Positions 14,811 through 35,687 of a stretch of DNA of 64,000 nt are shown here, one piece after another. The stretch covers positions 25,150 through 89,149 of the forward strand of contig ADNK01001243.1 of NCBI GenBank assembly GCA_000320545.1, in the 5' to 3' direction. The notes under the pieces are model-generated. The model did not search any database. It had not been told where the DNA came from and saw only the letters and a list, made by a program, of their open reading frames with translations. The position numbers and the translations under genes were made by a program. The first letter of the stretch is position 1, and every line of letters begins with the position of its first letter. This DNA comes from Bigelowiella natans CCMP2755. Taxonomy: Eukaryota; Protista; Cercozoa.

Positions 14811-14825
14811 CAAGTCGATCGCAGC

Positions 14826-15260: not shown

Positions 15261-15649
15261 CTGCGCGTCGACATTTGCAGTGTGCGAATTGCAGGCGGAG
15301 CAGCCACACGAGGGGCAAAACTGATGCACGAACTGTTGCCAGAGTGCGCATTGATGCTCATGCTGTGTCCTAGAGACCACACAAATGTTGTCACATCTCT
15401 GGCAACACGCACACTTGCATTGTGGATCTGTAGTAGTTGTGCACACCCACAAACCTCGTCAGTGCGTTTCGCGTTGGAATGTTCAAAACGACATGTTCTG
15501 AGCTAGGTTTCGTACACATGTGATTGTAAGAACAATGCATGCGACCATGCATGATCGAGCAATAACACACATGTGTATGTCCTAATCGCAAACATGCGCC
15601 ACAGCTAGCACAGCGAACCACAACACATGACACTCCCTTCTCCAAATAG

Positions 15650-16000
15650 CTTCAAAAGTTGAAGACAAGCTGATCGAACTTCGCTTCCGTGAAGCAATCC
15701 CACCGGAAAATATCAGCAAGCATTAATATGCATTTATGAAAAATAGATGCTTGCGAAACAGCTTTAACCAAGATGGCACAGAAAATCGAAGATGGGATAT
15801 ACAATAAAAACGGCATGATACGTAAATTGCACGAGAAATATAAAATTAGGGGTTCCTTATTATTATGGATCGATGACTGGCTTAGATATCGCTCGGCCAG
15901 ATTCAAATTTGGCAACACTCTATCTGAACATATGAATTGGAGAATGGAGTCCCAGAATGCTCTTCCCTTAGCTGTTTTCTATTTATAACATACTATGATA
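15650..16000 (+). pseudogene. Non-LTR (LINE-type) reverse transcriptase fragment, frameshifted
   Basis: KLHEKYKIRGSLLLWIDDWLRYRSARFKFGNTLS is followed in another frame by ELENGVPECSSLSCFLFITY, the LINE RT stretch leading to the GVPQGSxLSPxLF motif. Confidence 0.75.
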
Positions 16001-16146
16001 TATATGAATACATAACAAATACTGATTTTCAAATAATACCCCATGAGTAAATATTGCATCTGCTTAGTTCTTCACATTAGCCACAGGAAAATATATAGCT
16101 TGGGCCGCCCACCTTGTAGATGGCGCGCATCTACTCCTGTATATAT

Positions 16147-18149: not shown

Positions 18150-18351
18150 TTACCAAGCTTGAATTCTGGGAAGAATCATTTGGAAATGCATGGTAAATTT
18201 TCCCTTGCGTCTGTGATGAAATTATGTCGCAACCTGAAAATTAGCATTTTAAAATGTTGTTTCTAAAATCTCTTGGGACTCTCTCAAAGGTCAATACAAA
18301 ATTCACTAAAAAATCGCAAAATCGAATTTCGCATTTCTATTCTTAACTTCT

Positions 18352-21300: not shown

Positions 21301-22173
21301 ATCATCCCTTTTTTTTTCTTTTTTTCCTACAATATTACAAAGAGCATTACAAGTAAGATTTTTATATCTGGATTTTTCAAATGATTTTTCATATGAGTTC
21401 ATAATGGCATTAAACATGCAGGAATTTTCTCTGTTGTATTTTTTAGGTTGATGGAACAGATCACCAAAAGTTTTAGCATCTTTGTTAATTTCATATTTGA
21501 GGTATTTGTAATTCATAGCCACATTGTTATCATCATCTTTCACCACAATTTGACTGACATCATAATCACTTGATGATTTAGAATCACAAGACCCATCATG
21601 AATGATTTTGATGTAATCACTATGTTCAAATGAAGGGTTATTCATTTCCTCAGCCATGTTTTGGTTTCTCATTGACACTCCACAAATTTGTCTATCAAGT
21701 GATTTTGATTTGATTTTAACAAATCTACCAATAGCATTTCTAAATGCTTGAGTAGTTTTTTTCAAAACCACACCATTAACAGTCATCACATTTGCTAATC
21801 TCAGTCCTTTGTGATTGAATTCATTAACAGCATGTTTTCTTTCTTCATCTACCCTGCGATGAACAAAAATTGTATAACTTGTATTAGTTCCACCACAAAT
21901 TGTGCGATGTGTTTTTTTCAGTTGGCTTTCGTTGAGGTTTCTAAAAGAATTAAGACTGCTATTCACAACTTCAAAAGGTGATCCTTTAACATTTAATTTG
22001 TTGCAAGTTCTACCACCAATCTTAACTAATCGGTTGGTGTTAATGTTGCATCCATAACCATTTTTCATCTCTTTGTTTTCAATTTTAGTAAAAAGCTTTT
22101 GTAAGTTCTTTTTTTGAAGAGAACTAAACTTTCTAAATTTTTTCAAAAAACTTTTCATTATGTTATTAGACAC
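18352..22173 (-). CDS. Family-B DNA polymerase core + superfamily 1 helicase + C-terminal HNH-like fusion (1273 aa)
   Basis: PolB-like motifs GIDVNKCYT, KFICNKITG, AIKTDCI. SF1 motifs LPGSGKS, CFDEVY, GDLAQLDPI, YASTCHSFQG, WTAITRS. C-terminal CPVC...SVDRIDNDLPHLWNNCRLTCVECN. Start is GTG. Confidence 0.88.
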   Translation of the reverse strand: MSNNIMKSFLKKFRKFSSLQKKNLQKLFTKIENKEMKNGYGCNINTNRLVKIGGRTCNKLNVKGSPFEVVNSSLNSFRNLNESQLKKTHRTICGGTNTSYTIFVHRRVDEERKHAVNEFNHKGLRLANVMTVNGVVLKKTTQAFRNAIGRFVKIKSKSLDRQICGVSMRNQNMAEEMNNPSFEHSDYIKIIHDGSCDSKSSSDYDVSQIVVKDDDNNVAMNYKYLKYEINKDAKTFGDLFHQPKKYNRENSCMFNAIMNSYEKSFEKSRYKNLTCNALCNIVGKKEKKRDDAIKLAEIKKFFEKYELGLTVYDDMYNLVDKFTPDEHNKHTSPRNFRIMIHNNHAYLLNHQIKELEQKKKEVECNECSLQVYDKYKFRSIDEEKSNCFKFIKNLNDIVSHIKTVNDENIKYFYHGDVRELLIEMINVHKYEPKIFFQHNRMLSLSFKISNKYCIISHPDYNNMNDIVTYDVNENNYENFVKADDDFYQKIIKKEHISIFNDEALRMNEAHSKGPAVGRLSDDAIGNGIDVNKCYTWALKSISQIPIFHYFDNYVKYDDHSIEDLAMYVVMSLDGGEAHNILLPKRCNRVYGFKLKQMNKNSYDILYYIRPSNIATVKFSKAVDKLYETELGTINANKFICNKITGMLEKKYNHKSVCKIYKNLNEANHYKKLYGGEINPMNDDLFLLVRTTKKLVRETFKPIKDMIYDMVSIKMCNLYDKCVSVGLHPIAIKTDCIIVSDKVHKIIPHFDFNKDIGGVKLEKGTKVAGNYFIPEENELVEPKLININKIDIKNEWDTEEITNVFDKYDRTLVNALLPGSGKSYSVKKYKGKKILFVAPFNKLCQNIRESGHDAITYHRLFSLNIHNNECKYIRKFDISPYDVMCFDEVYMYSLHQLSKIKLFMDKHTDKKFIATGDLAQLDPIENEYLFNNIKDLDVRTTEALNSMFPNQITLKICKRVKTDEERNTLVQLKQEIFDVKTKPFDVLKKYFKVVKSISEVRTLNNITFYNFRSRSVGKHIHSLQKKPRKKVYVDGICYYAGMEIVCKKYNKKPKLYVNYAYEVVKVSKKEFVIQDVCDMEEIRIPIELISKHFRLSYASTCHSFQGLSVDGPITVFDTNTCRINRKWLWTAITRSTDLSQIQIYQHSDKECYRLKESMITQKLRMKVSSYKSQDKRAGRTWKDKEYIDEEWIKRTVNNHPQCPVCRCGFTADNVSVDRIDNDLPHLWNNCRLTCVECNLSRNNQQTYPAFGEYTPQDVEFEDKVSVEDLVHLGI

Positions 22174-22304
22174 ATTGTTATTACAGATTAGATTTCTTTA
22201 AGTGAGAATTAAACGAATGAAAATTTAAAAAAAAACTGTAGTTTTTTTGAGAGTTTTGAAACGAACATAAAATGGTTTAAAAAGAAAAAATCCATAGCAT
22301 TACA

Positions 22305-22622
22305 ATGAGCGAAAATAATAAAATATTTAAATCCAAAACTTCAGAATATGTGAAAGAATACTACAAAAAGAACTCTCAAAAATGGCTACGAAAGGTAGAA
22401 TGTGAAGCCTGTAATTGCATGATTGGATTAGCATCACTATCTCGACACAAAAGAACTAAAAAACACATGCTTAATAGCAATCCTAATCCATCCGAAGAGC
22501 AGAAAAAATTTGTAGATGACAATGAATGTGTCAAGTTCAGAAAATGCAAATTAGTCAAATTAGAAGAAAAACTAGATTTTGTCATGAAGAAATTAGAAGA
22601 GTTAGGAAACAAAACACAATGA
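22305..22622 (+). CDS. Viral zinc-finger protein
   Basis: KEYYKKN...VECEACNCMIGLASLSRHKRTKKH motif, typical of giant-virus/PLV small Zn-finger proteins. Confidence 0.7.
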   Translation: MSENNKIFKSKTSEYVKEYYKKNSQKWLRKVECEACNCMIGLASLSRHKRTKKHMLNSNPNPSEEQKKFVDDNECVKFRKCKLVKLEEKLDFVMKKLEELGNKTQ

Positions 22623-22681
22623 ATGTGTTTTCATGATCATCACAATTACTGTTGTGATTATGAGATGATATTATGAACAAG

Positions 22682-22936
22682 TTAAATGTTGATAGTTTTT
22701 GTTTCATGACCATTGTCATGGTTGTTGTGACTGTCAACATCCTTAAATCCATCACACCAAGATGGTTTGTCATGTTGTTCTTTTTCTTCAACATCTGGTT
22801 TGGCAAGACCAAGTTTAATCAACATGTCTCTATTTTGTCCCTTACAATTATCAATGTTCTTCACAAATGCTTCTACAGATTTGTCACTAACTTTAGGTTT
22901 TGTTGGAACTTTTTCATCCTCATCAGTGTTACTCAT
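22682..22936 (-). CDS. Viral hypothetical protein (84 aa)
   Basis: ATG-start ORF tiling the gene-dense viral region. Confidence 0.45.
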   Translation of the reverse strand: MSNTDEDEKVPTKPKVSDKSVEAFVKNIDNCKGQNRDMLIKLGLAKPDVEEKEQHDKPSWCDGFKDVDSHNNHDNGHETKTINI

Positions 22937-23202
22937 TGTGACACAACTACATGTTTTGTAATAATTTCAAACGAACATTGATCAAATGATACTGTTACAC
23001 CATCAACTTTTTTAGGAACCTTTGGAATTTCTTTTTTCTTCTTTTCCTCCTGTTTTATTTTTGGTTTACGAACATCCTCAAAACATTTCTCATTGTGTTT
23101 ACTCATCTTCTCCTTTTTTTCTTGACACCTTTTCTTTTGGTAAGCAATTACTTTGTCTCTGTTCAACTTGCAACATGCCTTTTGCTTTTCTTTGTCAGAC
23201 AT
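22933..23202 (-). CDS. Viral basic hypothetical protein (89 aa)
   Basis: KQKACCKLNRDKVIAYQKKRCQEKKEK, probably an ancestral KAYY..RY motif; TCTA motif 14 nt upstream. Confidence 0.6.
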   Translation of the reverse strand: MSDKEKQKACCKLNRDKVIAYQKKRCQEKKEKMSKHNEKCFEDVRKPKIKQEEKKKKEIPKVPKKVDGVTVSFDQCSFEIITKHVVVSQ

Positions 23203-23261
23203 TTGTTGAAATAGTTTAGATTTTTACATCTAAAAAAAAATGATCTCAACTCAATTGATGC

Positions 23262-24494
23262 ATGAGTAAGTTAAGAGAAACAGAAAAAAGGTTCACACGA
23301 CAGTGGAACAATTATTTTCCATTGATAGAAGAAAATAAAAATGGAGACAAAGTTCCAAGTAAAGTCAATGTTAATCATCTTCTTTGGATGATTTACAACA
23401 AAGACTCCATTGGAGGTGATAGAAAACTTGTGGTGAGAAAACTCAATACTGAGGTAATTAATCCAATTACAGGAACAAGATTGCATTTGTCGAACATGGA
23501 AAAGTCTTTAATCACACATGCTAATGACAACGGATTTAACATTAGTAATCCAACAGAAGATTTAAGAACACCACCAAGAGCACAAACACCGCCAAAAATG
23601 ATGAGAACACCAGCACCACCATCATCTAGAACACCATTGCCAAGAGGACCACCACCGCCACCACCAAGAAGACCACTACCAAGAAGACCACTACCAGGAG
23701 GACCACCAGTAGGACCAGTATTTGGAGGACCAGCACCAGCACCAGGAAATGGACAACAACAGATAGCACAAGAAGCAAAACTACCAGCATTAGCAAGATC
23801 ATCTGGTCGCAATGTTCCAACACAAGCAACACCATCACAAAGATTTAATCAACAACCAGGATTTAGTTTGACACCAGTAGTTCCTACAACAGCACCTGCT
23901 GGATTTAAATCAACACCAGACGACATGGGTAAGAAAAAATTAACAGATTTATCTTTGAAAGAAATAAAAGAATACAATGATTTTCAGAGACCGCTACCTG
24001 AAATTTTAGAAAGACAAAATACAATTTGTCAGACCAAGACAAGGCAAGGGTCAATTCAAGAAGCAAGTCATCCATTTGGAGGTAAATGTGATGTAACTAA
24101 TGAATCACAAATTAATTGTAACACTAATTCTAAAAACCCATTCATCAAATCTCAAGCACGATTAAAGGTGAAAGAAATAGATGACACAAGTAAAATTTAC
24201 AGACCTCAATTACAAGAAGCAATCGATGATGCTAAACCATCTGCTAAATTAATAGCAAAGATGGCTAACATGGAAGCACTCAAAGTTGAAGTTCCAGTTG
24301 AACCACCATTCAAAGCAAGAGGTTTTGATCCAAAAGAATTACGACCGGTATTTAAAATTAATTACACTCACGGTGTCGTGCCTCAATTTGTGAGTGAGAG
24401 ATGCAAGAAGAAAAAGGCAGAAGTAGCTGATGTTCACACTACTTACATCAAATCAAAACAAATGAAAGATGCAAGTGATCTGTTTTTTCAATGA
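23262..24494 (+). CDS. Viral proline-rich hypothetical protein (410 aa)
   Basis: Long intronless ORF with a central Pro/Arg-rich tract. Confidence 0.75.
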   Translation: MSKLRETEKRFTRQWNNYFPLIEENKNGDKVPSKVNVNHLLWMIYNKDSIGGDRKLVVRKLNTEVINPITGTRLHLSNMEKSLITHANDNGFNISNPTEDLRTPPRAQTPPKMMRTPAPPSSRTPLPRGPPPPPPRRPLPRRPLPGGPPVGPVFGGPAPAPGNGQQQIAQEAKLPALARSSGRNVPTQATPSQRFNQQPGFSLTPVVPTTAPAGFKSTPDDMGKKKLTDLSLKEIKEYNDFQRPLPEILERQNTICQTKTRQGSIQEASHPFGGKCDVTNESQINCNTNSKNPFIKSQARLKVKEIDDTSKIYRPQLQEAIDDAKPSAKLIAKMANMEALKVEVPVEPPFKARGFDPKELRPVFKINYTHGVVPQFVSERCKKKKAEVADVHTTYIKSKQMKDASDLFFQ

Positions 24495-24537
24495 TCATCG
24501 TTTTGTTGTAATTATTATTTCTATTACAATTGTGATA

Positions 24538-25278
24538 ATGACTAAAAAAGCATGTAAAAAATTAGATGTAAAACCCATATTAAAAAATAAATCTAAACAG
24601 ATGCACAATGATTACGGCTTGATTCCATCTTTTCCTAACAGATGCTTGTTCATAGCTCCTACTGGATCAGGTAAAAGTGTTGTGATAGTAAATTTATTAA
24701 CTCGTAAAAGATGTTTAAGAAACTTTTTTGATGTTGTTTCATTTTACTCTCCTAATGTGAATTACGAAGAAGAACACATAGAAACAAAAATAAAAAATGA
24801 AAAAGCAGAAATGAAGTTTGAAGAAAAGTTCAAAGAGAAAGAGTTTGGTGCTATGGTTCACAAATTAATGAAAGAGCAAAAAGAACTAAAAGACAAAAAG
24901 AAACCTATGAAAAAAACATTAATAACAATTGATGATTTCGCATCTGATGAAAAAGTGATGAAGAGCAAAACATTAAAAGATTTGTTCTTTGCTGGTAGAA
25001 AATGTGGTACATGTGTTTGGATTACCAGTCAGCATTACAAAATAGTTCAACCAGATGTTAGAACTAATGCGGAGCATCTCATCATGTTCAGTAGGCAACC
25101 CTCGAGTGAATTGAAAAAGATAGCTGAAGAAATGTCAATAGGTAAATACACCAAGAAAAAAATTATAGAAATGTTTGATGAAATGTCTACTACAGATTAT
25201 TCATTTTTACATTATGATCGTAAGCAACCAATGAATGAAAGATACATGATGAACTTTGAAAGTTTTATGAACATCTAA
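24538..25278 (+). CDS. A32-like (FtsK/HerA) genome-packaging ATPase
   Basis: Walker A FIAPTGSGKS, Walker B ITIDDF, GRKCG..VWITSQHYK and PDVRTNAEHLIMF; likely start ATG 24538 after a TCTA motif. Confidence 0.93.
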   Translation: MTKKACKKLDVKPILKNKSKQMHNDYGLIPSFPNRCLFIAPTGSGKSVVIVNLLTRKRCLRNFFDVVSFYSPNVNYEEEHIETKIKNEKAEMKFEEKFKEKEFGAMVHKLMKEQKELKDKKKPMKKTLITIDDFASDEKVMKSKTLKDLFFAGRKCGTCVWITSQHYKIVQPDVRTNAEHLIMFSRQPSSELKKIAEEMSIGKYTKKKIIEMFDEMSTTDYSFLHYDRKQPMNERYMMNFESFMNI

Positions 25279-25289
25279 ACATGGTCAAC

Positions 25290-25640
25290 ATGGATGAACT
25301 TTTACCAGAATTACATTTAAAAAAATCAGGGTCAAATCACAATCATTTGACAGTCGTCCAAAAAAAATTAGTAAATCCTTTTTTGTGTTTAAAAAAACCA
25401 ACTGTAATGCCTGATTCTCGTTTTTTTATGAGAAAAGAACTACCTGTAAGCATCAAACGAACATTTAAAAGGTGTCAAATGTCAATTAATTATTGTCTAA
25501 ATGATGATGATAACATGTGGGAAATGACAATTCTTCACCACCAAAACCAAAACCAATTCACTTTCACAAGCCACATTTTCCAAAACCAAAACCAATTCAC
25601 ATTCCAAGAATTCCTACAGAAAAAGCAACTAAGCCTATAG
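25290..25640 (+). CDS. Viral hypothetical protein; 3' part probably read-through into the next gene
   Basis: ATG at 25290 lies 12 nt after TCTA; the ORF overlaps 25517-26080 out of frame. Confidence 0.4.
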   Translation: MDELLPELHLKKSGSNHNHLTVVQKKLVNPFLCLKKPTVMPDSRFFMRKELPVSIKRTFKRCQMSINYCLNDDDNMWEMTILHHQNQNQFTFTSHIFQNQNQFTFQEFLQKKQLSL

Positions 25641-26080
25641 ACAAAGGAACAAAAAAAGGAGCAAATCATGTTAAAAACAAACTAACACATCCCGTTACTA
25701 CTGCAAATGAAGCTAAACGAGCATCAAACAAATTGGATTCCATGTCTCACGGTAGTCTTGGTATTGTGTATCAAGGAGCTCAGATGGTGTTTCCAGAATT
25801 TGGATTAGCCGTTACATTAGCTACTGTAGCAGATGAAATGGCTCACAATGATGGTAAGTCATCTAAAAAAACATTAAAAAACATCTTGTTAAACAAGGCT
25901 ACAGGAGGTGCTCATGGTGATTATCAAAATCTTAGAACCATTGAAAAATCAGAGCTTGTGTCTAAAATGGAAAACAAATTCAATGTAGATTTACACGACT
26001 TACCAGATGTTGATAGGGCAATTCCAGTTTCAATTAATGGTAAAGTTTCTGTTGATGATGCTACTAAAAAGTTTGGATAA
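25517..26080 (+). CDS. Putative N-myristoylated virion protein
   Basis: MGNDNS N-terminus (start now GTG), duplicated PKPKPIH, hydrophobic segment AQMVFPEFGLAVTLATVA. Confidence 0.6.
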   Translation: MGNDNSSPPKPKPIHFHKPHFPKPKPIHIPRIPTEKATKPIDKGTKKGANHVKNKLTHPVTTANEAKRASNKLDSMSHGSLGIVYQGAQMVFPEFGLAVTLATVADEMAHNDGKSSKKTLKNILLNKATGGAHGDYQNLRTIEKSELVSKMENKFNVDLHDLPDVDRAIPVSINGKVSVDDATKKFG

Positions 26081-26084
26081 ATCA

Positions 26085-26447
26085 TCACTTTTTCTCATCT
26101 TCTTTGATTTTAGGAGATGGTAAAAATGTTCCAAGTGTTAGAATGACAACATTTAGAAATGCATTTCTTTCAGATGGGTTTCCTACTGTCATAACTTGAA
26201 TCACACTGAACATCAAAACACTAAATGTTACACCAGATTTTAGGAAAAACTCTAAAGCCCTTTTGTCAGAAGTTGAACAACAAGACTGGTAAGCATTGAT
26301 GTATTTTTCATCCTCTAATTCTTTTCTGTGTATGACCTCTTCTATTATTTTATCTTTGCATTCTTTAGTGTTACTAATGTTCATAACAGTGTCTTTTTGT
26401 TGTTTTTCGTCTACTTTGTGTTCAATCGATTGTGGAATTATCATCAT
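26085..26447 (-). CDS. Small two-TM viral membrane protein
   Basis: SCC..DKRALEFF followed by two hydrophobic helices ending LGTFLPSP. Confidence 0.7.
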   Translation of the reverse strand: MMIIPQSIEHKVDEKQQKDTVMNISNTKECKDKIIEEVIHRKELEDEKYINAYQSCCSTSDKRALEFFLKSGVTFSVLMFSVIQVMTVGNPSERNAFLNVVILTLGTFLPSPKIKEDEKK

Positions 26448-26500
26448 AAATAGTCATGAATGAAATGCCATAATAATTTTTTTCTGTTCTTGTGATGACA

Positions 26501-27394
26501 ATGGGATCATTTGACAAGATAAAAGATGGATTCAAAAAAGCTGCAAATGATGTAAAAAAAACATCAGGGCATGTAACAAGACAAATCAAAAAAGATTTTG
26601 CAAAAGCAGGAGATGCCATCAAAGATGCATCTATCATGGCAGGTGATGAAATTAAAAAAGGAGCCCATGAAGTTGGAGATCAACTAAAAAAACAAGAAGT
26701 CCAACAGGCACTCGCAGGGACTGGAATTGCTTTGGCTAATGTTGCTACAGGAGGGGCATTTGCTCCAGAATTAATGGTAGGTGGATTAGCAATTCAAGGT
26801 GCAATCGAAGCTGCTAATGCAAAATCTTTACCTTGTGATACCATGCTACAGGCAGGAACAGCACATGCTACTGGTGAAATAGATTTTAACAAAAGAGGTA
26901 AGGGAGTGTCAAGTTTTAGCGAAGGTATTTCTAATTTAAGAGAAGAAGGTATGAAACGATTTGATGGTGTTGAAGATGAACTAAGTGATGAAGCGATCAA
27001 GCGATGTGACAATGTCAAAAGAAAAGTGGAAAATAGATTAGGATTTGATCCAACACAAATGCAATCTACAGATGAAGCTACAGATTTATTAAAAGCACAA
27101 ATTGATAGGAATGGAAAATTAGAGCAACAGCTAATGGATTTAAGAAGTGGAAAAGCGTTAGAAAATTTAACAAATGAAGCAAAAAGTGAATTAAAAAAAG
27201 AAGTAAGTAGTCAAGGCAATAAAATACTAAATGATGTTTTAGGTAAAGTATCTCAAAAGAAAAGCAAAGTGAAAAAAGCCACAAAAAAAGTTGAGAAGAA
27301 GGTGAAATCTTCTAAACGTAAAATGGCTGATGTCATTAAAAAGATGAAACAAAATCAACAGAGATACAGAATGTCAAGTGGTATTATGAATTGA
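26501..27394 (+). CDS. Viral helical/coiled-coil protein with Gly/Ala-rich hydrophobic segment
   Basis: Long ORF immediately before the MCP; ALAGTGIALANVATGGAFAPELMVGGLAI; basic C-terminus. Confidence 0.7.
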   Translation: MGSFDKIKDGFKKAANDVKKTSGHVTRQIKKDFAKAGDAIKDASIMAGDEIKKGAHEVGDQLKKQEVQQALAGTGIALANVATGGAFAPELMVGGLAIQGAIEAANAKSLPCDTMLQAGTAHATGEIDFNKRGKGVSSFSEGISNLREEGMKRFDGVEDELSDEAIKRCDNVKRKVENRLGFDPTQMQSTDEATDLLKAQIDRNGKLEQQLMDLRSGKALENLTNEAKSELKKEVSSQGNKILNDVLGKVSQKKSKVKKATKKVEKKVKSSKRKMADVIKKMKQNQQRYRMSSGIMN

Positions 27395-27461
27395 AAAAAA
27401 AATGTTATGAAAAAATTATATTCGTTTTGATATGATTTTTTTTCATCTACACATTGTTAAC

Positions 27462-29129
27462 ATGGATGCAATTAGTAAAACTACCGATGTTAGTAGATTT
27501 CCAGAAATGGACTACAGTTTACCCCCTATGGATAAAATTTTTATTGATTCAGTCTCTCATTTTAGAGAAGAGATGAAAAATAGTAACAATGCTGAAAAAG
27601 CGAACACCAAAATGCGTTTTTTCATTCCAGCTCAACAAAGAGCAGTAGACCCATCTGAATTATATTTTCAATTAAATGTTGCTGCCAGAACAGCTGGAGA
27701 TGCTGATTTACCAGCGGTTGACCAATTAAGATTAAGACTTGCTGAAGGTGGAGTTCATTCTCTCTTTAGAGAGATGATTGTTAGAGATGGTAGAGGTAAT
27801 GTCATTGAAAAAATTAATAACTACAACCTTGTTACTAAAATTTTACAAGATGCTTTGTTAACTAAAGAAGTTAAAAATAATTCATTAAATGTGGAAGGTG
27901 TTTGCAATGACCAAGGATTGTTTAACACAGTTCATAGCAAATTTGATGTTACTGGCAACACCTTAGAATTAAAAGCACCTGTGGCTCAGGTCGTAGCTAA
28001 TACTCTTCCAGCAGGTGCGCTTAATTTTGGTGCTGCCAATGCTGCTCCTGTTGCTGCTGTGATCACTCCCGCTTCACCATCAAGAGTACTTGGTGTAGGA
28101 ACTCAATTCTTAACTCAACTAAGACCAGGTTCTGTTGTTAAATTTGATGGAAATAGTCACACAGTTGCTCATGTTGCATCTGATGCAGAATTTGTATCTG
28201 CTACTAACATTGCTGCTGATGCTGCTGCTGCTAACATTGTTGCTGGTAGAGATTTTGTTGAAGGATTACTTGAAACAGAAAGTCGTTACAAAAAATTCCA
28301 TCACGATAGACTTTTTACACCAGATGGAGCTGTTCATTGCTTCCAACCATGCTGCTCCGGATTTTTATCTCAAAACAAATACCTTCATCTTGATCATTGT
28401 GGTGGGTTAGAATTTGAATTTACTTTAGATAGCAATGCCATGATTTTCGATGACACTAACACAGCAGGTAATGCTAATATTTTCATTAAACAAGGCTATG
28501 TTCATTGCACTGCTCTTGAATTTTCACCAGTTGTTGAAGCTGCTCTTGCTAAAGCACATGTGAGAGGATCATCTATGAGTTTCCCTGTGTACCATGTAGT
28601 TAGTAGAACACAAAATGCTTCTACCTCTGTTTCTCAGGAATATCAAGAAAGTTTAGCAATTCTCAAAATGGTCAAAATTGTTAGTGGACCAACTGGGTTT
28701 GATGCAAATACTGGAGCATCATTTTTCTTTGAAGATCTAACCAGTGCTGAAAGAATTTGCTGGGAGATCAACAAACAAAGATTTACTGAGTGTGGCAATG
28801 ATGACATTTTACCTCAAGTTGTTTTTGTGAATGACAGAATTGGCAAAAATCTGTTAGGAGATTACAAACATGCTACAATTTCTTGTGGAGAATTCAAAGA
28901 AGCAGGTAAATCTGCTTTAATTTTCAACACCCAAAACCATGAAGAAGGTAATTACACAGGAGTTAACACCAACCGAGCAACTATGAGACTTAAAATTGAA
29001 GGAGGAGATGGTGCTGCTGGTGCTTTACAACCTGGAATTGCTAATGTAGGTAGACAAATCGATGTGTTAATGATGCACGAGCAATACATCATGTTAAAAG
29101 ATGGAGAAAGTATGACCGTGCGATCTTAG
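27462..29129 (+). CDS. Major capsid protein (double jelly-roll, PLV type)
   Basis: RFFIP...VDPSELYFQLNV, GGVHSLFREMIVRDGRGNVIEKINNYNLVTKIL and SGFLSQNKYLHL...GLEFEFTL follow the PLV MCP pattern; size and position next to mCP and ATPase fit. Confidence 0.85.
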   Translation: MDAISKTTDVSRFPEMDYSLPPMDKIFIDSVSHFREEMKNSNNAEKANTKMRFFIPAQQRAVDPSELYFQLNVAARTAGDADLPAVDQLRLRLAEGGVHSLFREMIVRDGRGNVIEKINNYNLVTKILQDALLTKEVKNNSLNVEGVCNDQGLFNTVHSKFDVTGNTLELKAPVAQVVANTLPAGALNFGAANAAPVAAVITPASPSRVLGVGTQFLTQLRPGSVVKFDGNSHTVAHVASDAEFVSATNIAADAAAANIVAGRDFVEGLLETESRYKKFHHDRLFTPDGAVHCFQPCCSGFLSQNKYLHLDHCGGLEFEFTLDSNAMIFDDTNTAGNANIFIKQGYVHCTALEFSPVVEAALAKAHVRGSSMSFPVYHVVSRTQNASTSVSQEYQESLAILKMVKIVSGPTGFDANTGASFFFEDLTSAERICWEINKQRFTECGNDDILPQVVFVNDRIGKNLLGDYKHATISCGEFKEAGKSALIFNTQNHEEGNYTGVNTNRATMRLKIEGGDGAAGALQPGIANVGRQIDVLMMHEQYIMLKDGESMTVRS

Positions 29130-29197
29130 ATTGTTTCATTGTTCTTAAATTCCACCAAAATTTATGTCATAAAAATTCATTTCTAACATGAATTAAT

Positions 29198-29914
29198 ATG
29201 AAACAACACAAAATTTATTTTAATAGCAAAGATGGAATTACTGGAACAACCAATGATTTAAATTATCAATTAAATAGTGCAATTGACAATGCATCTTCTA
29301 TTTCTATTACAAGAGTAAGATTTCCAATTACTTGTTACAATGTGTCAGCTAAAAATAACATTTTAGAAATTGAGAATAGTTCTGGAAACAAAACAAGTAT
29401 GGAATTAACAAAACAAAATTACAGTGCTACTGAATTAGTAACAGAATTACAAACTAAACTTTCAACTAATGCCTCATCAGTAGGAACTTTTACTCCTGTG
29501 CACAATGCTAAAACAGGAAAATTTAGTACAGGTTGTAGTGATAGTTTCAAAATAATTAAAAACGAATGCTCTAAATTTTTAGGTTACAATGACACTACAT
29601 CTCTCTCTGCATTACATGTAGCAGATAACATGAGTAATCTTTCGCCAAAACCTGTTTACATCCAAACTGATTTACAACTGGATGCAGAATTAGCAGGTCA
29701 ATTATCAAACATAGTTTATGAAGTTAGTGGCGATGTTTCTTTTGGAAGTATTTTGCATGATGATGAAAAACCAAGTGAAAGAGTAGAACTAATGAAAAAA
29801 AAGAATGTAAGCAACTTAAAATTTGCATTAGTAGATGGAGATGGAGATGAAATTGAAAATAATGGCATAGATTATTCTATGACAGTATCTTTGTTTTATC
29901 AGACTAAGGAATAA
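29198..29914 (+). CDS. Minor capsid (penton) protein
   Basis: IYFNSKDG..GT...ISITRVRFPITCYNVSAKNN and C-terminal FALVDGDGDEIENNGIDYSMTV follow the PLV/Polinton mCP pattern. Confidence 0.8.
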   Translation: MKQHKIYFNSKDGITGTTNDLNYQLNSAIDNASSISITRVRFPITCYNVSAKNNILEIENSSGNKTSMELTKQNYSATELVTELQTKLSTNASSVGTFTPVHNAKTGKFSTGCSDSFKIIKNECSKFLGYNDTTSLSALHVADNMSNLSPKPVYIQTDLQLDAELAGQLSNIVYEVSGDVSFGSILHDDEKPSERVELMKKKNVSNLKFALVDGDGDEIENNGIDYSMTVSLFYQTKE

Positions 29915-29945
29915 GAAAAAAAATATCTAATCATCATTAATAAAA

Positions 29946-31490
29946 ATGAGTGTTAGCATTACAGGTAAACTTGTTCCTAACCCTAATGTGTCTGGTGGAA
30001 CAAACAATGACAACAATTCTTCAGCAGGAGGTGTAGTTGGGATCACGAGCAATTCGAATGACATTAATTTTGATAAAGGAGTTTCTGTGAATGGTATAAA
30101 ATTTCAAAACACAGGAAACCAAAACGGACTTTTTATGGGTGTTGATTTGTCTGGTAATTCGTCTATGGAAATGGTCTCTCCAACAACCTACATTGATTTT
30201 GTACATCAATTAGGTTCTGATTATGCGAATCGCATTCTGTCAAAAAATGACGGTATTCACTTCACAGGGGATTTGCATGTGGGTATCATTAGACCTAATT
30301 GTACATCTTCAAGTACAATGACATCTACGAATGGAACTTTTAATGCTATTAATTTAGACGGTGTCCCTTTGAATCCAAGAAATTGTTTAGTTCACGGGAT
30401 TACATCTGACATTGTAAGTGGAAACATAAATTTTACTATAAATTCTAATTTTCAAGAAAAATTAACAACATTAGGTGATCATAATCTTTCAAATAAAATG
30501 ACAAACGATGCTACAAATGGTTTGATTATTAATGCTAATGATGTTAACAATGCAAGTGTTTCATTAACTAAAGTATCAAAGTTTTCTTCATCTGCATTAG
30601 GAAAAGAACCAAAAATAATTAACATTGATAATGATTTGCAATTGTCTAATCATTCAGGTGTGCCTTCAATGAGGTTCAAAGATGACACTGGTAATGTTCA
30701 AATTTTATGTAATGAATTAGAGGTAATAGATAACATGGGGCAGGTAAAATTAAAGATGTTAGAAAAAATGAATAACACAGAAAACAAACTTAATCCAATC
30801 ACTTTGTCATCTAATAACGAACATCAATTTTCAAGTTCCATTTTTGTAAATGGTTTGAGAAGCACAACACAACCTCATATCGATGGTATTTGTTTAGGAA
30901 AAGACATTCATAACAGTAGTAGTATTGACTTCGTTAGTCCAACATGCTACATTGATTTCGTTCATAACAATTTGGGAACAGATTATGCAAATCGGATTTT
31001 ATCAAACAATGATGGCATTCACATTGCAGGTGACATGCATGTGAATGATGCTAAAATTGCTGGAGATGTTACATTTCAAGGTTCATTGTTATCTAACACA
31101 ATAACAGATTTAACAAATAGATTAAATGCAATTGAAGCATTAGCTACAAGCAATAGCAACAACATTCAAAATGGATTTAGTAATGTGAATGTCCCCATCA
31201 TGAGAGTCATTAATAATTCATCTACTGTTGTTTTCTTTGAAAGTGGCAATCAGCCACCTTTTTATAATCCTCGTGTAGAAAGTGGTAAATCTACAGTTTT
31301 AGAATATGCTTCAAATGTTGTGTCATTAAATGTTCGTTCAAGTTCTCCATCACATAATGCTTTCAATCTTACAGCAGACAAAGCAGTTAGTATAAATTCT
31401 GGTTCTGATCCTAACATGCCAACTGGAGCTCAATATAGAGTCGAATTAAATGGTCAGAATTTTGTAACTTTTACTATTTCTAATCCATAA
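29946..31490 (+). CDS. Putative fibre/spike protein with an internal duplicated module
   Basis: Asn/Ser-rich beta protein with two copies of VSPTxYIDFVH..LGxDYANRILSxNDGIHxxGDxHV; follows the penton gene. Confidence 0.6.
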   Translation: MSVSITGKLVPNPNVSGGTNNDNNSSAGGVVGITSNSNDINFDKGVSVNGIKFQNTGNQNGLFMGVDLSGNSSMEMVSPTTYIDFVHQLGSDYANRILSKNDGIHFTGDLHVGIIRPNCTSSSTMTSTNGTFNAINLDGVPLNPRNCLVHGITSDIVSGNINFTINSNFQEKLTTLGDHNLSNKMTNDATNGLIINANDVNNASVSLTKVSKFSSSALGKEPKIINIDNDLQLSNHSGVPSMRFKDDTGNVQILCNELEVIDNMGQVKLKMLEKMNNTENKLNPITLSSNNEHQFSSSIFVNGLRSTTQPHIDGICLGKDIHNSSSIDFVSPTCYIDFVHNNLGTDYANRILSNNDGIHIAGDMHVNDAKIAGDVTFQGSLLSNTITDLTNRLNAIEALATSNSNNIQNGFSNVNVPIMRVINNSSTVVFFESGNQPPFYNPRVESGKSTVLEYASNVVSLNVRSSSPSHNAFNLTADKAVSINSGSDPNMPTGAQYRVELNGQNFVTFTISNP

Positions 31491-31540
31491 TAGTCTTTCG
31501 TTTAAAATTGAAAAAAAATATATAGTTATATCATAATCAT

Positions 31541-31990
31541 GTGGATAATGTTAGTAATGTTCGAGAAACTTTGAAAGGTTACAGAGTAACACAATTAAAA
31601 GAATTATGTCGTGAAGTAGGAATATCTCAATGTGCGAGAAACAAAAAAACTTTAATAGACAGATTGACACCCATGGTTCTAAAAAGTGCTGGGTGTGAAG
31701 TCGTTTCTATTGAAAAAGAAGAGGAGGTAAAAAAAGAAGCTAAAACAATCAAAAGAGTTCCAGTTAAAAATAGTGTCAAAAAGAAAGAAGAAAAAATTAG
31801 TCTTGAATCAAAAGAAGATAGCAATGATGAAAAAGTAAGTGTAGAAATAGAAGAAGATAGTAATGATGAAAGTTCAATAACTGAATCACCACAGGAAGAT
31901 CAAATTAATGTCAATCTTTCTAATGGAAGGAACAATAATTGTTTTATTAACTTTAGGTATATGTGTGATGATTGGATACATATTTGGTAG
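31541..31990 (+). CDS. Protein with Rho-N/SAP-like helix-extension-helix and acidic tail
   Basis: LKGYRVTQLKELCREVGISQCARNKKTLIDRL; GTG start; original stop possibly at 31901 (CAA). Confidence 0.6.
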   Translation: MDNVSNVRETLKGYRVTQLKELCREVGISQCARNKKTLIDRLTPMVLKSAGCEVVSIEKEEEVKKEAKTIKRVPVKNSVKKKEEKISLESKEDSNDEKVSVEIEEDSNDESSITESPQEDQINVNLSNGRNNNCFINFRYMCDDWIHIW

Positions 31991-32048
31991 AGTGTCGGCC
32001 TCAATTACTGATTTAGACCCCACTAACGATCACTTGATTACACATTAA
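31908..32048 (+). CDS. Small single-TM protein (not in ORF track)
   Basis: MSIFLMEGTIIVLLTLGICVMIGYIFGRVSASITDLDPTNDHLITH*, read by hand. Confidence 0.45.
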   Translation: MSIFLMEGTIIVLLTLGICVMIGYIFGRVSASITDLDPTNDHLITH

Positions 32049-32103
32049 AAAATTATTTTTTTTTGAAATTTTGTTTGTAAAAATTATCTAAATCTTTATA
32101 AAT

Positions 32104-32712
32104 GTGAGTTCTTCAACCGCAACTTTTAGAAATAATGTCCTCGTGGAAGGAACATTGAGTGGATTAACAATTACAAGAATCGACCAAGAGAAAACCCAAG
32201 TACTTAATAGTCTCAATCAACACATTACCGATTTCCAAGCAGAACAGACTGCTACTCAAACTGAAAGAGATGCTCTTTCAGCAGCATTAACTCAGGCTCA
32301 AACAGACACTACTAATGCAATTGCAGGAGTTCAGTTACAAATTGATGATAACAAGACAGACATAGAAGGAAAACTAGCAAATGAAGTCAATGCGAGACTT
32401 TCTCTCGCTTCAGAAGTGAGCACAAGAAATGCATTTGTGGATTCTGAAATTGTAAGGCTAGACCAACAACATGCTGACGATGATGCTAGATCAACAAATG
32501 CAGAAACTCGTTTGGACAACATTGATGTAGATTTACAAAATCAAATTGATAGTGCTGTAAATCAACTTAATATTAATCATCAAAATGTTGAACCAAGAAC
32601 AGCAAAGCTCGAGGAACATTTAGTGATCGATGAGTCTGACCCAGCAAACCCAGTCGTAAGCATTAAAGCAGGAGTGAAATTCGTTGTCACTGGTGATTTC
32701 GAACATGCTTAG
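32104..32712 (+). CDS. Coiled-coil viral protein (fibre/stalk-like)
   Basis: Heptad-rich 202-aa ORF; GTG start 13 nt after TCTA. Confidence 0.7.
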   Translation: MSSSTATFRNNVLVEGTLSGLTITRIDQEKTQVLNSLNQHITDFQAEQTATQTERDALSAALTQAQTDTTNAIAGVQLQIDDNKTDIEGKLANEVNARLSLASEVSTRNAFVDSEIVRLDQQHADDDARSTNAETRLDNIDVDLQNQIDSAVNQLNINHQNVEPRTAKLEEHLVIDESDPANPVVSIKAGVKFVVTGDFEHA

Positions 32713-32761
32713 ATTGCAAATGTGATTTAAATAACATGTAAAAATCTAACAATTAATGATA

Positions 32762-33004
32762 ATGTCTAATATTAAGGGTGGTGGTGCTATTTTCAAAGAA
32801 AGACCCACAATGTCAAATGATGTTGTAGGTCAAACAATGGATACTATTAATCAACAATTAAATGATAACAAGACCCAAAACACAGAAAATAAATTACAAC
32901 TTGATTTTTTAAAAGAAGTTTTTACAATAGACAAAGAAAACAAAACTGTTACGATGAATCCTGAATACAAACTCATCATTCCTAATGATTTAATTCAAGG
33001 ATAG
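32762..33004 (+). CDS. Small viral protein, C-terminus similar to the preceding ORF
   Basis: LKEVFTIDKENKTVTMNPEYKLIIPNDL vs LEEHLVIDESDPANPVVSIKAGVKFVVTGDF; TCTA upstream. Confidence 0.6.
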   Translation: MSNIKGGGAIFKERPTMSNDVVGQTMDTINQQLNDNKTQNTENKLQLDFLKEVFTIDKENKTVTMNPEYKLIIPNDLIQG

Positions 33005-33042
33005 TTCGTTTAAAATAGTATAGTTTTTTATAGTCATAAGTA

Positions 33043-33660
33043 ATGACTACAAAAAATGTTACGTTTTACAGAATTACATGTTTAACCACAAGAGAAACAT
33101 GTGTAGGTTCTACTACTATGGATCCAAAAGTGAGATTACAAATGCATGTTGCTAATTTTAGAGCATACAAGAAAGGTTTTGGTAATTGTTGTTCTTCCTT
33201 TCAAATCATAGAAAGAGATAATTACATGTTTCAAATAATTTCGGTAGTAGATGCTAAAAAAATATCGGTTCATCAGAAACGAAAGAAAGAAGCTGAACTG
33301 ATAGCAGAAGAGAAGACAAAAAGAAATTGTGTCAACAAAAATGTCCCAGGTAGAGATGTAAAACAATACAGAATAGATAATGGAGATTACATCAATGCCT
33401 ATGCGAGAGATTATTATCATGATGAAACGAAACACGACAAAATATATTGTTGCTTTTGTGACAGATTTGTGATCAAAAAACATTATGACAAACATATTCA
33501 TTGTAAAAAGCATATAAAAAATCTTCTCAAATTAAATAATGAAAATAAAAATACCAGCGAAAGTAAGCAAGAAAGCAAGATTAGCATTGAAATTGAAAAA
33601 ATTAGGTTGGAAAGGAATGACAGAGACAGGAATAAACAGAGCAAAGCAATTAGCACATGA
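33043..33660 (+). CDS. GIY-YIG endonuclease with C-terminal Zn finger (second motif Tyr changed to Cys)
   Basis: TFYRITC...ETCVGST...RLQMH...KEAELI...CVNKNVPGR, then CCFCDRFV..HYDKHIHCKKH. Confidence 0.8.
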   Translation: MTTKNVTFYRITCLTTRETCVGSTTMDPKVRLQMHVANFRAYKKGFGNCCSSFQIIERDNYMFQIISVVDAKKISVHQKRKKEAELIAEEKTKRNCVNKNVPGRDVKQYRIDNGDYINAYARDYYHDETKHDKIYCCFCDRFVIKKHYDKHIHCKKHIKNLLKLNNENKNTSESKQESKISIEIEKIRLERNDRDRNKQSKAIST

Positions 33661-34270
33661 CGATGCTATAGACATTGAAGATATTGTGGTGATGAATGCT
33701 TGGTTTAGTAGACATCAATACGTATCAAAAATAGGTTATGATAAATGGAAAGCACAAGGGAAACCAATGGATCAAGGACAAAGAAACAGGAGAAGAGGTG
33801 CCGTAAGTTGGGCCGGATGGGGGGGAGATGCTGGTTTTGATTGGATTAATAGCAAAAAGGTTCAAGATAAAATTAAAAAATATAAGATAAGCATCAATGA
33901 GAAGTATGTTCCAAAATCTCTTAGTAAAGAAGATAGGAAAAAACAAATAGAGAGCATTTTTTATGGTAGAGCACGGCCTAAATTAAGAAGTTTCAAAAGC
34001 AAGAAATCTAAATGGACTGTTAAAGCTGACAAGTATTTCAAAGGTGATACATCCTCATCTAATGTGACTAAAGTTTTAGATGTTCCTTTAAAAGCATTAA
34101 AAAAAATTATGAAAAAAGGTGAAGGAGCTTACTACTCTGGGGGATCAAGACCGAATCAAAGTGCTGAGTCGTGGTCAAGAGCCCGTCTGTATTCTGTTCT
34201 GTTTGGTGGACCATCTCGTGATGTTGATAAAAAGATTGTAAGCAAATATGATATTCCTTTATTGAAATAA
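33539..34270 (+). CDS. Two-domain basic protein of large-DNA-virus type (C-terminal DUF5824-like)
   Basis: N-domain GINRAKQLA...MNAWFSRH...VSWAGWGGDAG; C-domain KYVPKSLS...KGEGAYYSGGSRPNQSAESWSRARL. Family assignment is from memory. Confidence 0.6.
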   Translation: MKIKIPAKVSKKARLALKLKKLGWKGMTETGINRAKQLAHDDAIDIEDIVVMNAWFSRHQYVSKIGYDKWKAQGKPMDQGQRNRRRGAVSWAGWGGDAGFDWINSKKVQDKIKKYKISINEKYVPKSLSKEDRKKQIESIFYGRARPKLRSFKSKKSKWTVKADKYFKGDTSSSNVTKVLDVPLKALKKIMKKGEGAYYSGGSRPNQSAESWSRARLYSVLFGGPSRDVDKKIVSKYDIPLLK

Positions 34271-34289
34271 AAAAATCTATAGTATTATA

Positions 34290-34448
34290 ATGGTATTGAA
34301 AAAATTAACCAAAAGACAGAAAGATTTGTTGACCGCTCACAGTAAGCATCATAGTAAAAAACATATGGCTTCTATGAGAATGAACCTAATGTTAGGTAAA
34401 ACTTTCAAAGAAGCCCACGAGATAGCAACTAAAAAGTATGGTAAGTAA
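34290..34448 (+). CDS. Small basic His-rich viral protein (52 aa, not in ORF track)
   Basis: MVLKKLTKRQKDLLTAHSKHHSKKHMASMRMNLMLGKTFKEAHEIATKKYGK*; TCTA 10 nt upstream. Confidence 0.7.
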   Translation: MVLKKLTKRQKDLLTAHSKHHSKKHMASMRMNLMLGKTFKEAHEIATKKYGK

Positions 34449-34483
34449 ATAATTTTTATTATTATTATCAATGACAATAAATC

Positions 34484-35296
34484 TTATTTATCTTCAAGTT
34501 TGATGTTTTTTTTGTCTTTTGAAATCTTGTAATATTTGCGGAACAATTTATCAAAATCATCTGATTTGAGACCAAGATATTTTATGTATTCATCTTGTAA
34601 TTTAATATTCTCTTTGTCATTTGAGTTTTTATAATATTTAAGAAACAATCTATCAAAATTCTTTGATTTAACATCATTAGGCAACACACATCTAATGGTG
34701 CCTTCAAGACTTCCATCACTATATTTCACTTTGAAGGTAGTAGGTTCTTGATGGTTATTTTTCTTTGCTTTGTTTGCATGGTCTAATATTTCAACGATGT
34801 ATTTCTGCTTTTTGTTTCGTAGATTGTATGTAGGTTTTGACTCAATGTCTGTAAGTTTTTTAAATTGTTTACAATTTAATATTCTCATCAATTTACTCAA
34901 CCTTATTAATATTCTTTCATCGCCTCTGTCTACTAACAAGTTGTTTTTTCTAGCATACTGTTTTAATTTTAGTTCATATTTATGAACCATAGAGTTTATA
35001 GCTGCTACTTTTTTGCTCTTTTCAGTGATGAATAAGTAATGTAATTTGCAACCCATCCAAGGTCTTTTGGAGTCAGTGTACCCATAATATGATATGTAAT
35101 CTTTTAATCTTGATGCTGGTTGAGTTCCCTTGCCTTGACCGAACTTGATGACAAGTTCTTCAGTGAATTTCCTTTTGTATGTGTCCATGTTTGATGATAT
35201 CACATACAAAAATCTTTTGTTCTTCAAAGATCTAAATTGTTCTTCCGTCAGCCATTTGTCCAATGGTTTTCCCATTTTTGATTTGAATATTCTCAT
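34484..35296 (-). CDS. TIR-associated protein: T5orf172/GIY-YIG-like N-terminus, possible chromo-like segment
   Basis: FLYVI...VIKFG.....SRLKDY...E.KLK pattern, then KYIVEILDH...FKVKYSDG. Confidence 0.55.
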   Translation of the reverse strand: MRIFKSKMGKPLDKWLTEEQFRSLKNKRFLYVISSNMDTYKRKFTEELVIKFGQGKGTQPASRLKDYISYYGYTDSKRPWMGCKLHYLFITEKSKKVAAINSMVHKYELKLKQYARKNNLLVDRGDERILIRLSKLMRILNCKQFKKLTDIESKPTYNLRNKKQKYIVEILDHANKAKKNNHQEPTTFKVKYSDGSLEGTIRCVLPNDVKSKNFDRLFLKYYKNSNDKENIKLQDEYIKYLGLKSDDFDKLFRKYYKISKDKKNIKLEDK

Positions 35297-35687
35297 TTAT
35301 TATTTTAGGTGAGAATAAATTTACAGTGTTTTTAACGATGCTCTGCTGTGGATTTTGCCATGTCATTTTTAACAAAGATTGTTTTCACAAAACACATGGG
35401 TGGAACATTTTCATCATGTCATTCTAGCAATTCAGTTCAGCAGCAGGTCGTCAGTAGGCAAAGCTTTCATGTTGCGCATTTTCGCACATTTTGCTACTGA
35501 TTGCTGATGGGAAATCAATTGTGGAGTACTTGACATGTCATGCTCGTGCAATTTTGCCATGTCATTCTAGCAATTCAGTTCAGCAGTAGGTCGTCAGTAG
35601 GTGAATTTTTGAAATGAAAATTTTGTGTCATTCCCCTACTGACGGCAGATGGGAAATCAAATGTGGGGTGTGGTCCATTCTCTGCTG
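34792..35687 (-). repeat. Right inverted repeat (TIR-like)
   Basis: Reverse complement of 13903-14810; contains two ~143-bp sub-repeats and the 5' part of ORF 34484-35296. Confidence 0.95.

Follow-up and report, generated by a model that had tools for sequence, protein, structure and literature searches.

TCTA motifs before PLV-Bnat26 genes point to a likely ChlorV-type helper for a Polinton-like virus of Bigelowiella natans whose copy here has probably decayed

The element and its genes

We analyzed a stretch of 64,000 nucleotides of Bigelowiella natans CCMP2755 (contig ADNK01001243.1, positions 25,150 to 89,149; hereafter the window), which carries a Polinton-like virus (PLV) with the short word TCTA in front of about half of its genes. 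As far as comparison of sequences can test it, this element is the published PLV-Bnat26 (BnTV26): its major and minor capsid proteins (MCP and mCP) proved the same, when compared by eye, as PLV-Bnat26_9 and PLV-Bnat26_10 in the supplement of PMC5499653, and all six protein lengths in Table S1 of that paper (269, 565, 238, 205, 243, and 1268 aa) match open reading frames (ORFs) of the window. The element has therefore already been published as a PLV, and the question left is that of its promoters, for which an initial annotation of this DNA had proposed the late promoter of Cafeteria roenbergensis virus (CroV), an AT-flanked TCTA shared by the virophage mavirus. The principal genes are listed below.

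18352..22173, minus strand: Tlr1-like superfamily 1 (SF1) helicase fused to a polymerase-like domain (Bnat26_18); opens at GTG 22173, first ATG 5 codons on
22305–22622, plus strand: Zn-ribbon-like ORF; TCCA variant 10 nt before it
24538..25278, plus strand: A32-type packaging ATPase (Pfam Pox_A32, E=1.6e-11)
27462..29129, plus strand: double jelly-roll MCP (Bnat26_9), from structure model and sequence match
29198..29914, plus strand: mCP (Bnat26_10), 238 aa, read as PLV-Bnat26_10 by eye; directly 3' of the MCP gene
29946–31490, plus strand: 514-aa ORF; TCTA 16 nt before it
32104..32712, plus strand: conserved 202-codon gene with no in-frame Met; closest homologs have Met at the same residue
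33043–33660, plus strand: GIY-YIG nuclease ORF (Bnat26_13); TCGTTT at −37
34290–34448, plus strand: 52-aa ORF; TCTA 10 nt before it
35296–34484, minus strand: 270-aa terminal ORF, overlapped by the right inverted-repeat arm

The helicase domains were found with Pfam, and the length of the protein matches Bnat26_18; the fusion with an inactivated family B polymerase domain follows PMC5499653, without a profile match of our own. The 555-aa MCP was modelled as a double jelly roll (pLDDT 81, pTM 0.77), and the Foldseek matches of the model are double jelly-roll capsids (E ~1e-12 to 1e-17, 7–17% identity). Sputnik MCP stands first in the PDB ranking, but its identity is only 10% and Faustovirus and PBCV-1 rank level with it; the highest-identity BFVD match is TVS1 (17%), and published trees group this MCP with PLVs. 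Its best relatives are three B. natans gene models (83–91% identical) and four environmental proteins (62–65%); for the environmental relative P0004, ESM Atlas returned unnamed viral clusters and, at 0.96, a cluster of nucleocytoplasmic large DNA virus capsids, which is a lead only. Environmental homologs (P0018, P0022, P0016, P0004/P0175, and P0007) sit on contigs of 10.7–21.9 kb, long enough for most of a free relative. An insertion rich in beta structure, modelled with confidence, lies around MCP residues 155–270; it may be a surface tower domain, and its profile also matches repeated domains of many large proteins.

Among 19 proteins scanned with Pfam and 20 with PHROGs, no match was found to an integrase or recombinase, to an RNA polymerase or transcription-factor family, or to a protease family; several ORFs had no match at all, so a very divergent protease is possible. 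A maturation cysteine protease is a core gene of virophages. PLVs are described as being without it (PMC5499653).

TCTA and TCGTTT upstream of gene starts

TCTA was found 10–17 nt before 11 of the 20 curated gene starts, on both strands, with gaps of 15, 14, 14, 12, 17, 12, 12, 16, 13, 13, and 10 nt. All 11 sites had been reported in the initial annotation and were recovered here; three of the starts they precede (22173 of the helicase, 25517, and 32104) are GTG, situated 2 nt downstream of an out-of-frame ATG. The sites and two variants are as follows.

22189..22192, minus strand: TCTA, 15 nt before the helicase GTG 22173
23217..23220, minus strand: TCTA, 14 nt before ORF 23202–22933
24520..24523, plus strand: TCTA, 14 nt before the ATPase ATG 24538
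25274..25277, plus strand: TCTA, 12 nt before ATG 25290 of a small ORF
25496..25499, plus strand: TCTA, 17 nt before GTG 25517 (187-codon frame, first Met at codon 76)
27446..27449, plus strand: TCTA, 12 nt before the MCP ATG 27462
29182..29185, plus strand: TCTA, 12 nt before the mCP gene
29926..29929, plus strand: TCTA, 16 nt before the 514-aa ORF
32087..32090, plus strand: TCTA, 13 nt before GTG 32104
32745..32748, plus strand: TCTA, before the ORF ending at 33004 (gap of 7 or 13 nt)
34276..34279, plus strand: TCTA, 10 nt before the 52-aa ORF
22291..22294, plus strand: variant TCCA, 10 nt before the Zn-ribbon-like ORF
26483..26486, plus strand: variant TCTG, before the ORF ending at 27394 (gap of 8 or 14 nt)

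The ORFs were picked by hand from the ORF table, overlapping short frames being dropped, and knowledge of the motif guided the choice of the starts 25290, 26501, and 32762, so that the P values of the curated set are inflated. The safe figure is that of a motif-blind set, composed of the first ATG of 19 ORFs with a gap window of 7–16 nt. Here TCTA precedes 6/19 starts, against 37/860 other ATGs (p=1.6e-4) and 8/189 AT-matched ATGs (p=4.9e-4), and 2 of 2000 dinucleotide shuffles reached six. The initial annotation's observation is confirmed. In the curated set, with gaps of 7–17 nt, the counts are 10/20 against 35/852 other ATGs (p=6e-9) and 5/182 AT-matched ones, and 0 of 1500 shuffles reached the observed number; a control window 21–36 nt upstream gave 1/20 and the reverse word TAGA 0/20. 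When all 4-mers and windows were allowed to compete, TCTA came out on top, and an equally strong best word appeared in 0 of 300 random AT-matched ATG sets, by a slim margin (observed log10 p −8.9, best null −8.5). The flanks of the 11 start-linked sites have an AT fraction of 0.84, compared with 0.67 at 162 other TCTA occurrences. In the host flanks the word is uncommon before plus-strand ATGs, which there are not gene starts (10/307 and 18/685). A scan for sigma-70 promoters gave no signal (70 sites against 59.2 ± 8.5 in shuffles).

The two variants, which the initial annotation had taken for TA-mutated copies of the motif, are present, but as a class they are not enriched on their own (3/20 against 69/852, p=0.22). 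The idea of mutated variants finds support at a homologous site: in two other copies whose gene models run through the MCP-mCP spacer, the mCP start is changed in both, and TCTA 29182 reads TCCA in one. One further TCTA, at 23229, was left out of the count, since 7 nt separate it from a 9-codon ORF and 29 nt from a 410-aa ORF. At 23229–23262 the sequence runs from TCTA through eight A to an ATG that opens these 9 codons in a frame other than that of the 410-aa ORF, which is proline-rich and lies 22 nt downstream. The small TCTA-preceded ORF at 25290–25640 overlaps the next gene by ~120 nt, and TpA editing (below) may have removed the stop that it once had.

A second word, TCGTTT, starts 37–43 nt before 6/20 genes, compared with 2/852 other ATGs and 0/182 AT-matched ones.

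22211..22216, minus strand: TCGTTT, −43 of the helicase
22969..22974, minus strand: TCGTTT, −38 of ORF 22936–22682
24498..24503, plus strand: TCGTTT, −40 of the ATPase
27422..27427, plus strand: TCGTTT, −40 of the MCP
31498..31511, plus strand: TCGTTT followed directly by AAAATTGA, before GTG 31541
33006..33011, plus strand: TCGTTT, −37 of the GIY-YIG ORF

The shorter TCGTT adds the terminal ORF. TCGTTT was found post hoc and survives the all-word scan (0/300 nulls). CpG is strongly depleted over 18352–34450 (dinucleotide odds ratio, rho, 0.37 against 0.81–0.85 in the host flanks), and a motif containing CG therefore stands out. Four of the seven TCGTTT or TCGTT genes are without TCTA; near −40, the word would act as an early or upstream element, because it precedes the helicase, nuclease, and terminal ORFs, mostly without TCTA. 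Of four occurrences of AAAATTGA, the mimivirid early-promoter word, only the copy within 31498–31511 is well placed, and three letters of that word differ in three other copies of the element. Our literature search, limited to the text that was checked, found no paper on a TCGTTT motif, the sole match there being a primer.

Candidate helper and transcription of the element

ChlorV-1 to ChlorV-4 are described as Aliimimivirinae infecting B. natans strains (PMC13196603; bioRxiv 10.1101/2025.11.19.688996). Their early motif, AAAAATTGA, is reported to peak near −34 and their late motif, TCTA, near −14, both predicted without transcriptomes (bioRxiv 10.1101/2025.11.19.688996), and the virus carries in its particles an RNA polymerase, a capping enzyme, and a poly(A) polymerase of its own (PMC13196603). 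In PLV-Bnat26, the median gap of 13 nt puts the T of TCTA at −17 and its A at −14, a position similar to that of ChlorV, depending on the reference point of the ChlorV value. In Cafeteria, TCTA is reported to mark mavirus and the type 4 endogenous mavirus-like elements (EMALEs) (PMC8547959); there a motif match predicts reactivation, in that only EMALE04, with the CroV late motif, is described as responding to CroV (PMC10945749).

The reading that we favor, and hold to be probable though well short of certain, is that TCTA lets late machinery of the ChlorV or CroV type read the PLV-Bnat26 genes and that host TpA mutation has disabled the copy in the window. ChlorV is a better candidate for the helper than CroV, and PLV-Bnat26 likely parasitises a ChlorV-type giant virus. 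The late promoter of CroV type is thus supported, and it is sharpened by ChlorV, a CroV-related virus of B. natans with the same predicted motif at a similar position; dependence on such a virus, the other part of that proposal, is something we infer from motif match and precedent. The free virus would enter, or the provirus reactivate, during ChlorV infection, the element would be transcribed late in the cytoplasmic factory, and it would lower the yield of the giant virus as mavirus does.

If TCTA and TCGTTT were instead signals of the element's own or of the host, read by Pol II or an element factor, the match to ChlorV and CroV would be convergence and replication would be nuclear and helper-free. 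We regard this as unlikely. Some PLVs are reported to replicate independently (PMC10945749), TCGTTT is without counterpart among the ChlorV motifs in the accessible text of the ChlorV reports, and the host transcribes the element without known infection. We examined host RNA in one raw RNA run (X21; ~6% of the run, 624.5 million letters, 408 reads on 17.5 kb) and in contigs of three runs guessed to be RNA (X15, X17, and X18). Nowhere over 22288–34551 does the depth in X21 exceed 0.6 per bin and strand. The right repeat takes most of the X21 reads; polyadenylated plus-strand RNA ends there at 35392, with several different loose 5' ends (35336–35400), and its probable source is other genomic copies of this repeat. 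Read ends of X21 at 27180 and 23171 (5–6 molecules) were considered as transcript starts and are not interpretable as such.

Among the matches listed for the X15, X17, and X18 contigs, 13/15 carry GT..AG joints that are absent from the DNA run, and some of the pieces are identical to the window copy. These joints span gene borders, and the ATPase and the 52-aa ORF lose their starts and TCTA sites to them; RNA-like contigs run antisense to the helicase and the terminal ORF. The host thus transcribes the region as spliced read-through rather than as gene-sized messages, which does not look like productive expression; splicing across genes would be expected for genes not shaped for nuclear transcription. 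The initial annotation had named constitutive host-driven transcription as evidence that would speak against its proposal. Such RNA does exist, but it cuts across genes and starts, and it argues against host or own signals, as do the RNA polymerase and transcription-factor families not found with Pfam and PHROGs and the scarcity of TCTA before ATGs in the host flanks.

Probable decay of the copy, remaining alternatives, and related systems

Four long frames of the element (22173, 25517, 31541, and 32104) open at a GTG preceded by AT. The ATG thus formed 2 nt upstream gives 5, 41, 11, and 1 codons, respectively, and the first in-frame Met of the four frames comes at codons 6, 76, and 45 and, in the last, never. 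Of the starts preceded by T, 4/6 are GTG, against 0/14 of the others (p=0.003, with some circularity at 25517 and 31541). Among the other copies, which were read from contigs and gene models, one shows ATG at the 32104 site, and the closest homologs of the 202-codon gene begin with Met-Ser-Ser-Ser at the residue of this GTG; another copy's helicase begins with Met-Ser-Asn five residues before the window's first ATG. Contigs of a DNA run bridge three of the ATGTG sites without gap or mismatch, and these are therefore not assembly errors. We rejected the ideas that ATGTG arose by insertion of TG, serves as a frameshift device, or reflects faulty assembly, given these gapless contigs and the ATG of other copies at the GTG position; the match to AUGUG in the literature listing concerns E. 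coli.

Changes in the capsid protein are of a similar kind. Of 15 Tyr columns invariant in the four environmental relatives, 7 are changed here, all to Cys or His, and 8 are kept, compared with 245/265 other invariant residues kept; when each environmental MCP was left out in turn, Tyr was kept at 60/67 positions. Two other B. natans copies keep Tyr at 11/15 and 0/14. Of 69 differences from the environmental majority, 25 fit a single change of TpA to TpG or CpA. Contigs of the run X1 show 299 A>G and 284 T>C against 113 G>A and 139 C>T, a sign that the copy in the window is less edited than some others. Hypermutation of TpA to TpG or CpA is reported for viral inserts in B. natans by Mettrop et al. 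(bioRxiv 10.64898/2026.01.13.699255), and the lost starts and the Tyr to Cys or His changes, as read from the sequence, fit it. Of the TpA contexts, CTAA and CTAC belong to the least depleted and ATAT to the most depleted (in a table uncorrected for composition), and this bias may be why TCTA survives better than starts of the form AT-ATG. The second motif of the GIY-YIG ORF (33043–33120) reads Cys-Val-Gly, with codon TGT. The family motif would have Tyr at this position, and the Cys is likely another TpA edit.

TpA steps lie inside TCTA, wherever a T precedes an ATG, and in all Tyr codons; with the host editing such steps after integration, each copy would decay. TpA editing would remove stops rather than create them, and stop loss is seen in other copies; open frames would therefore be no proof of health. 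A more specific account is possible, and we put it forward tentatively: PLV-Bnat would parasitise ChlorV in the manner of a virophage, using a code of two words (TCTA late, TCGTTT early or upstream), and the alga's own antiviral TpA editing would erase it at letters indispensable to it, namely, the helper-imposed TCTA, T-preceded starts, and Tyr codons.

The left end of the element is also damaged. GC content is 0.27–0.38 per kb over 19001–35000, against ~0.41 in the surroundings, and this AT-rich block is bounded by inverted repeats (terminal inverted repeats), with arms from 13903 and to 35687 that share blocks of 94–100% complementarity.

13903..14813, plus strand: left inverted-repeat arm, with a frameshifted, truncated copy of the terminal ORF inside
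14815..18350, no strand assigned: host-like insert from the left arm to the helicase; its minus strand has an array of ankyrin-like exons with a 179-nt period, and no viral gene was seen
34789..35687, minus strand: right inverted-repeat arm, overlapping the 270-aa terminal ORF

The left arm is degenerate and lies 3.5 kb away from the core, and no target-site duplication was seen at the ends of the element. Its copy of the terminal ORF (14290–14820, compared with 34780–35300) has several insertions of 2–4 nt relative to the right arm, a second type of decay; frameshifts of this kind were not seen in the core genes. In the array, minus-strand frames appear as 33-residue exons separated by non-coding spacers and resemble an intron-rich host gene; we take these exons, by eye, to be ankyrin-like. 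Either the array is an insert within the element or the left arm belongs to another insertion.

Several points weigh against the reading of helper-read genes in a TpA-edited copy. TCTA is a mere 4-mer that occurs 167 times in 18100–34500, and 9/20 genes are without it. The ChlorV motif came from a MEME run pre-sorted on TCTA (bioRxiv 10.1101/2025.11.19.688996), the reported helpers of PLVs include Algavirales, and for the large giant-virus insert in B. natans, Phycodnaviridae is given as the probable assignment (bioRxiv 10.64898/2026.01.13.699255). The starts at GTG 25517 and 31541 are without a confirming homolog, and among the matches listed three other copies show no difference at 31541, whose GTG may be common to other copies. 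The TpA odds ratio was rejected as evidence of editing on its own, as it fails to discriminate: rho is 0.66 in the core against 0.75–0.76 in the host flanks, and it is also low for an environmental homolog, the 1-kb locus L002 (0.52 against 0.58 for the L002 homolog). Apart from L002, scans for related loci returned no relative usable for judging TCTA conservation; L002 itself does not include the sequence upstream of the shared gene, and at its two downstream ORFs it is ambiguous, with TCTA 12 nt before a 3-codon ORF and directly before another ATG. A further locus, L001, was rejected as an unrelated tailed phage.

It is tempting to regard the window copy as still inducible and protective, as the initial annotation did for an antiviral provirus: ChlorV would switch it on, the GTG starts would be weakly used or other copies would complement it, and particles would be made. 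All long frames are open, the 11 TCTA sites survive, modelling still recovers the double jelly roll of the capsid, the copy is less edited than some others (judging by MCP Tyr and the X1 substitution counts), and integrated PLVs of Tetraselmis are reported to reactivate (10.1101/2025.10.09.676808). We nevertheless think it quite unlikely, as one conserved gene, of 202 codons, is without Met and has an ATG in another frame 2 nt upstream, the open frames would be a poor guide for the reason given above, and the copy appears disabled because of its lost starts, the 7/15 conserved capsid Tyr changed, the integrase or recombinase not found among the scanned proteins, and its damaged left end without a target-site duplication seen. 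The part of the initial annotation that proposed an inducible antiviral provirus is weakened for this copy, which is probably no longer a working defence. Of the features of an EMALE04-type lifestyle, it has the late-promoter motif of a candidate helper; an integrase or recombinase of its own was not found, and the four GTG starts and the changed capsid Tyr speak against intact genes.

A helper other than ChlorV, be it another member of the Aliimimivirinae or an unrelated lineage that reads TCTA and TCGTTT, would be compatible with the reported variation in host range of ChlorV strains among chlorarachniophyte strains, with the part reportedly played by Algavirales as PLV helpers, with a TCGTTT that ChlorV leaves unexplained, and with a AAAATTGA that is well placed only once and differs in three other copies; set beside the motif that ChlorV and PLV-Bnat26 share in one host, we rate it as improbable. 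That the motif is chance or a by-product of start choice in AT-rich spacers is scarcely credible: the word is short, the curated starts were partly motif-guided, and the best null came close in the all-word scan, but the motif-blind set is significant against AT-matched ATGs and shuffles, neither the sequence further upstream nor the opposite strand shows an excess, and the gaps cluster at 10–17 nt.

In 2016, when no virus of B. natans was in culture, the effect of its integrated PLVs on giant viruses was an open question (PMC5499653). ChlorV is now cultured, and the motif match names a candidate helper and predicts the positions of transcript starts. Helper-dependent PLVs and TCTA virophages are known already; what is new is a named element with a cultured candidate helper, which joins three published, unconnected facts, namely, PLV-Bnat26, ChlorV, and TpA editing. 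The search of the literature covered here found no PLV on a TCTA late motif and no link of PLV-Bnat to TCTA or ChlorV; Blanc et al. (2015), reportedly the first description of the element, lies outside this coverage and may bear on priority. The editing signature warns that open reading frames overstate the intactness of such proviruses and that ATG-based annotation misses genes, for instance, the 202-codon gene without Met. Provirus reactivation and TpA editing, both proposed as defences of the alga, may oppose each other. If the tentative two-word account is true, the host would erase a potentially protective provirus and the half-life of an endogenous virophage defence would be set by editing, with constant re-acquisition needed and with young copies inducible and old ones not.

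Compared with known systems, the closest is PLV-Bnat26 as published, which is the same element, with the gene of the helicase and that of the Zn-ribbon protein adjacent and divergent; the word "promoter" occurs 0 times in the main text and supplement of PMC5499653, and the accessible text does not discuss lost starts or editing. The hypermutation of Mettrop et al. is likewise a change of TpA to TpG or CpA in integrated viral DNA of B. natans, but it was measured on scaffolds 10 and 146, two other regions, and start codons, TCTA, and PLV-Bnat26 are not discussed in its accessible text. ChlorV-1 to ChlorV-4 share with the element the predicted TCTA near −14 and the host; they differ as lytic giant viruses with no TCGTTT-like motif among those reported in the accessible text, and their papers contain the words "polinton" and "transpoviron" 0 times. 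Mavirus and EMALE04 of Cafeteria burkhardae with CroV (PMC8547959 and PMC10945749) resemble the present case in the AT-flanked TCTA, the integration into a protist genome, and a related giant virus of the same host, whereas here the capsid is of PLV lineage, the helicase is an SF1 fusion, no rve integrase or protease was found, the motif stands before about half of the genes, and the copy is probably damaged by host editing; reactivation is reported as demonstrated for EMALE04, and PLV-Bnat26 is known here from sequence. PgVV/Gezel-14T (bioRxiv 10.1101/2022.07.28.501842) is a helper-dependent PLV as well, but with an early AAAATTGA motif, which its authors contrast with late-promoter virophages; if our reading is true, PLV-Bnat26 adds a PLV on a late promoter. 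Finally, the CpV-PLVs (10.64898/2026.09.29.755237) and Tsv-S2/S3 of Tetraselmis (10.1101/2025.10.09.676808) are reported to be giant-virus-dependent PLVs, and the latter reactivate from the algal genome on infection.

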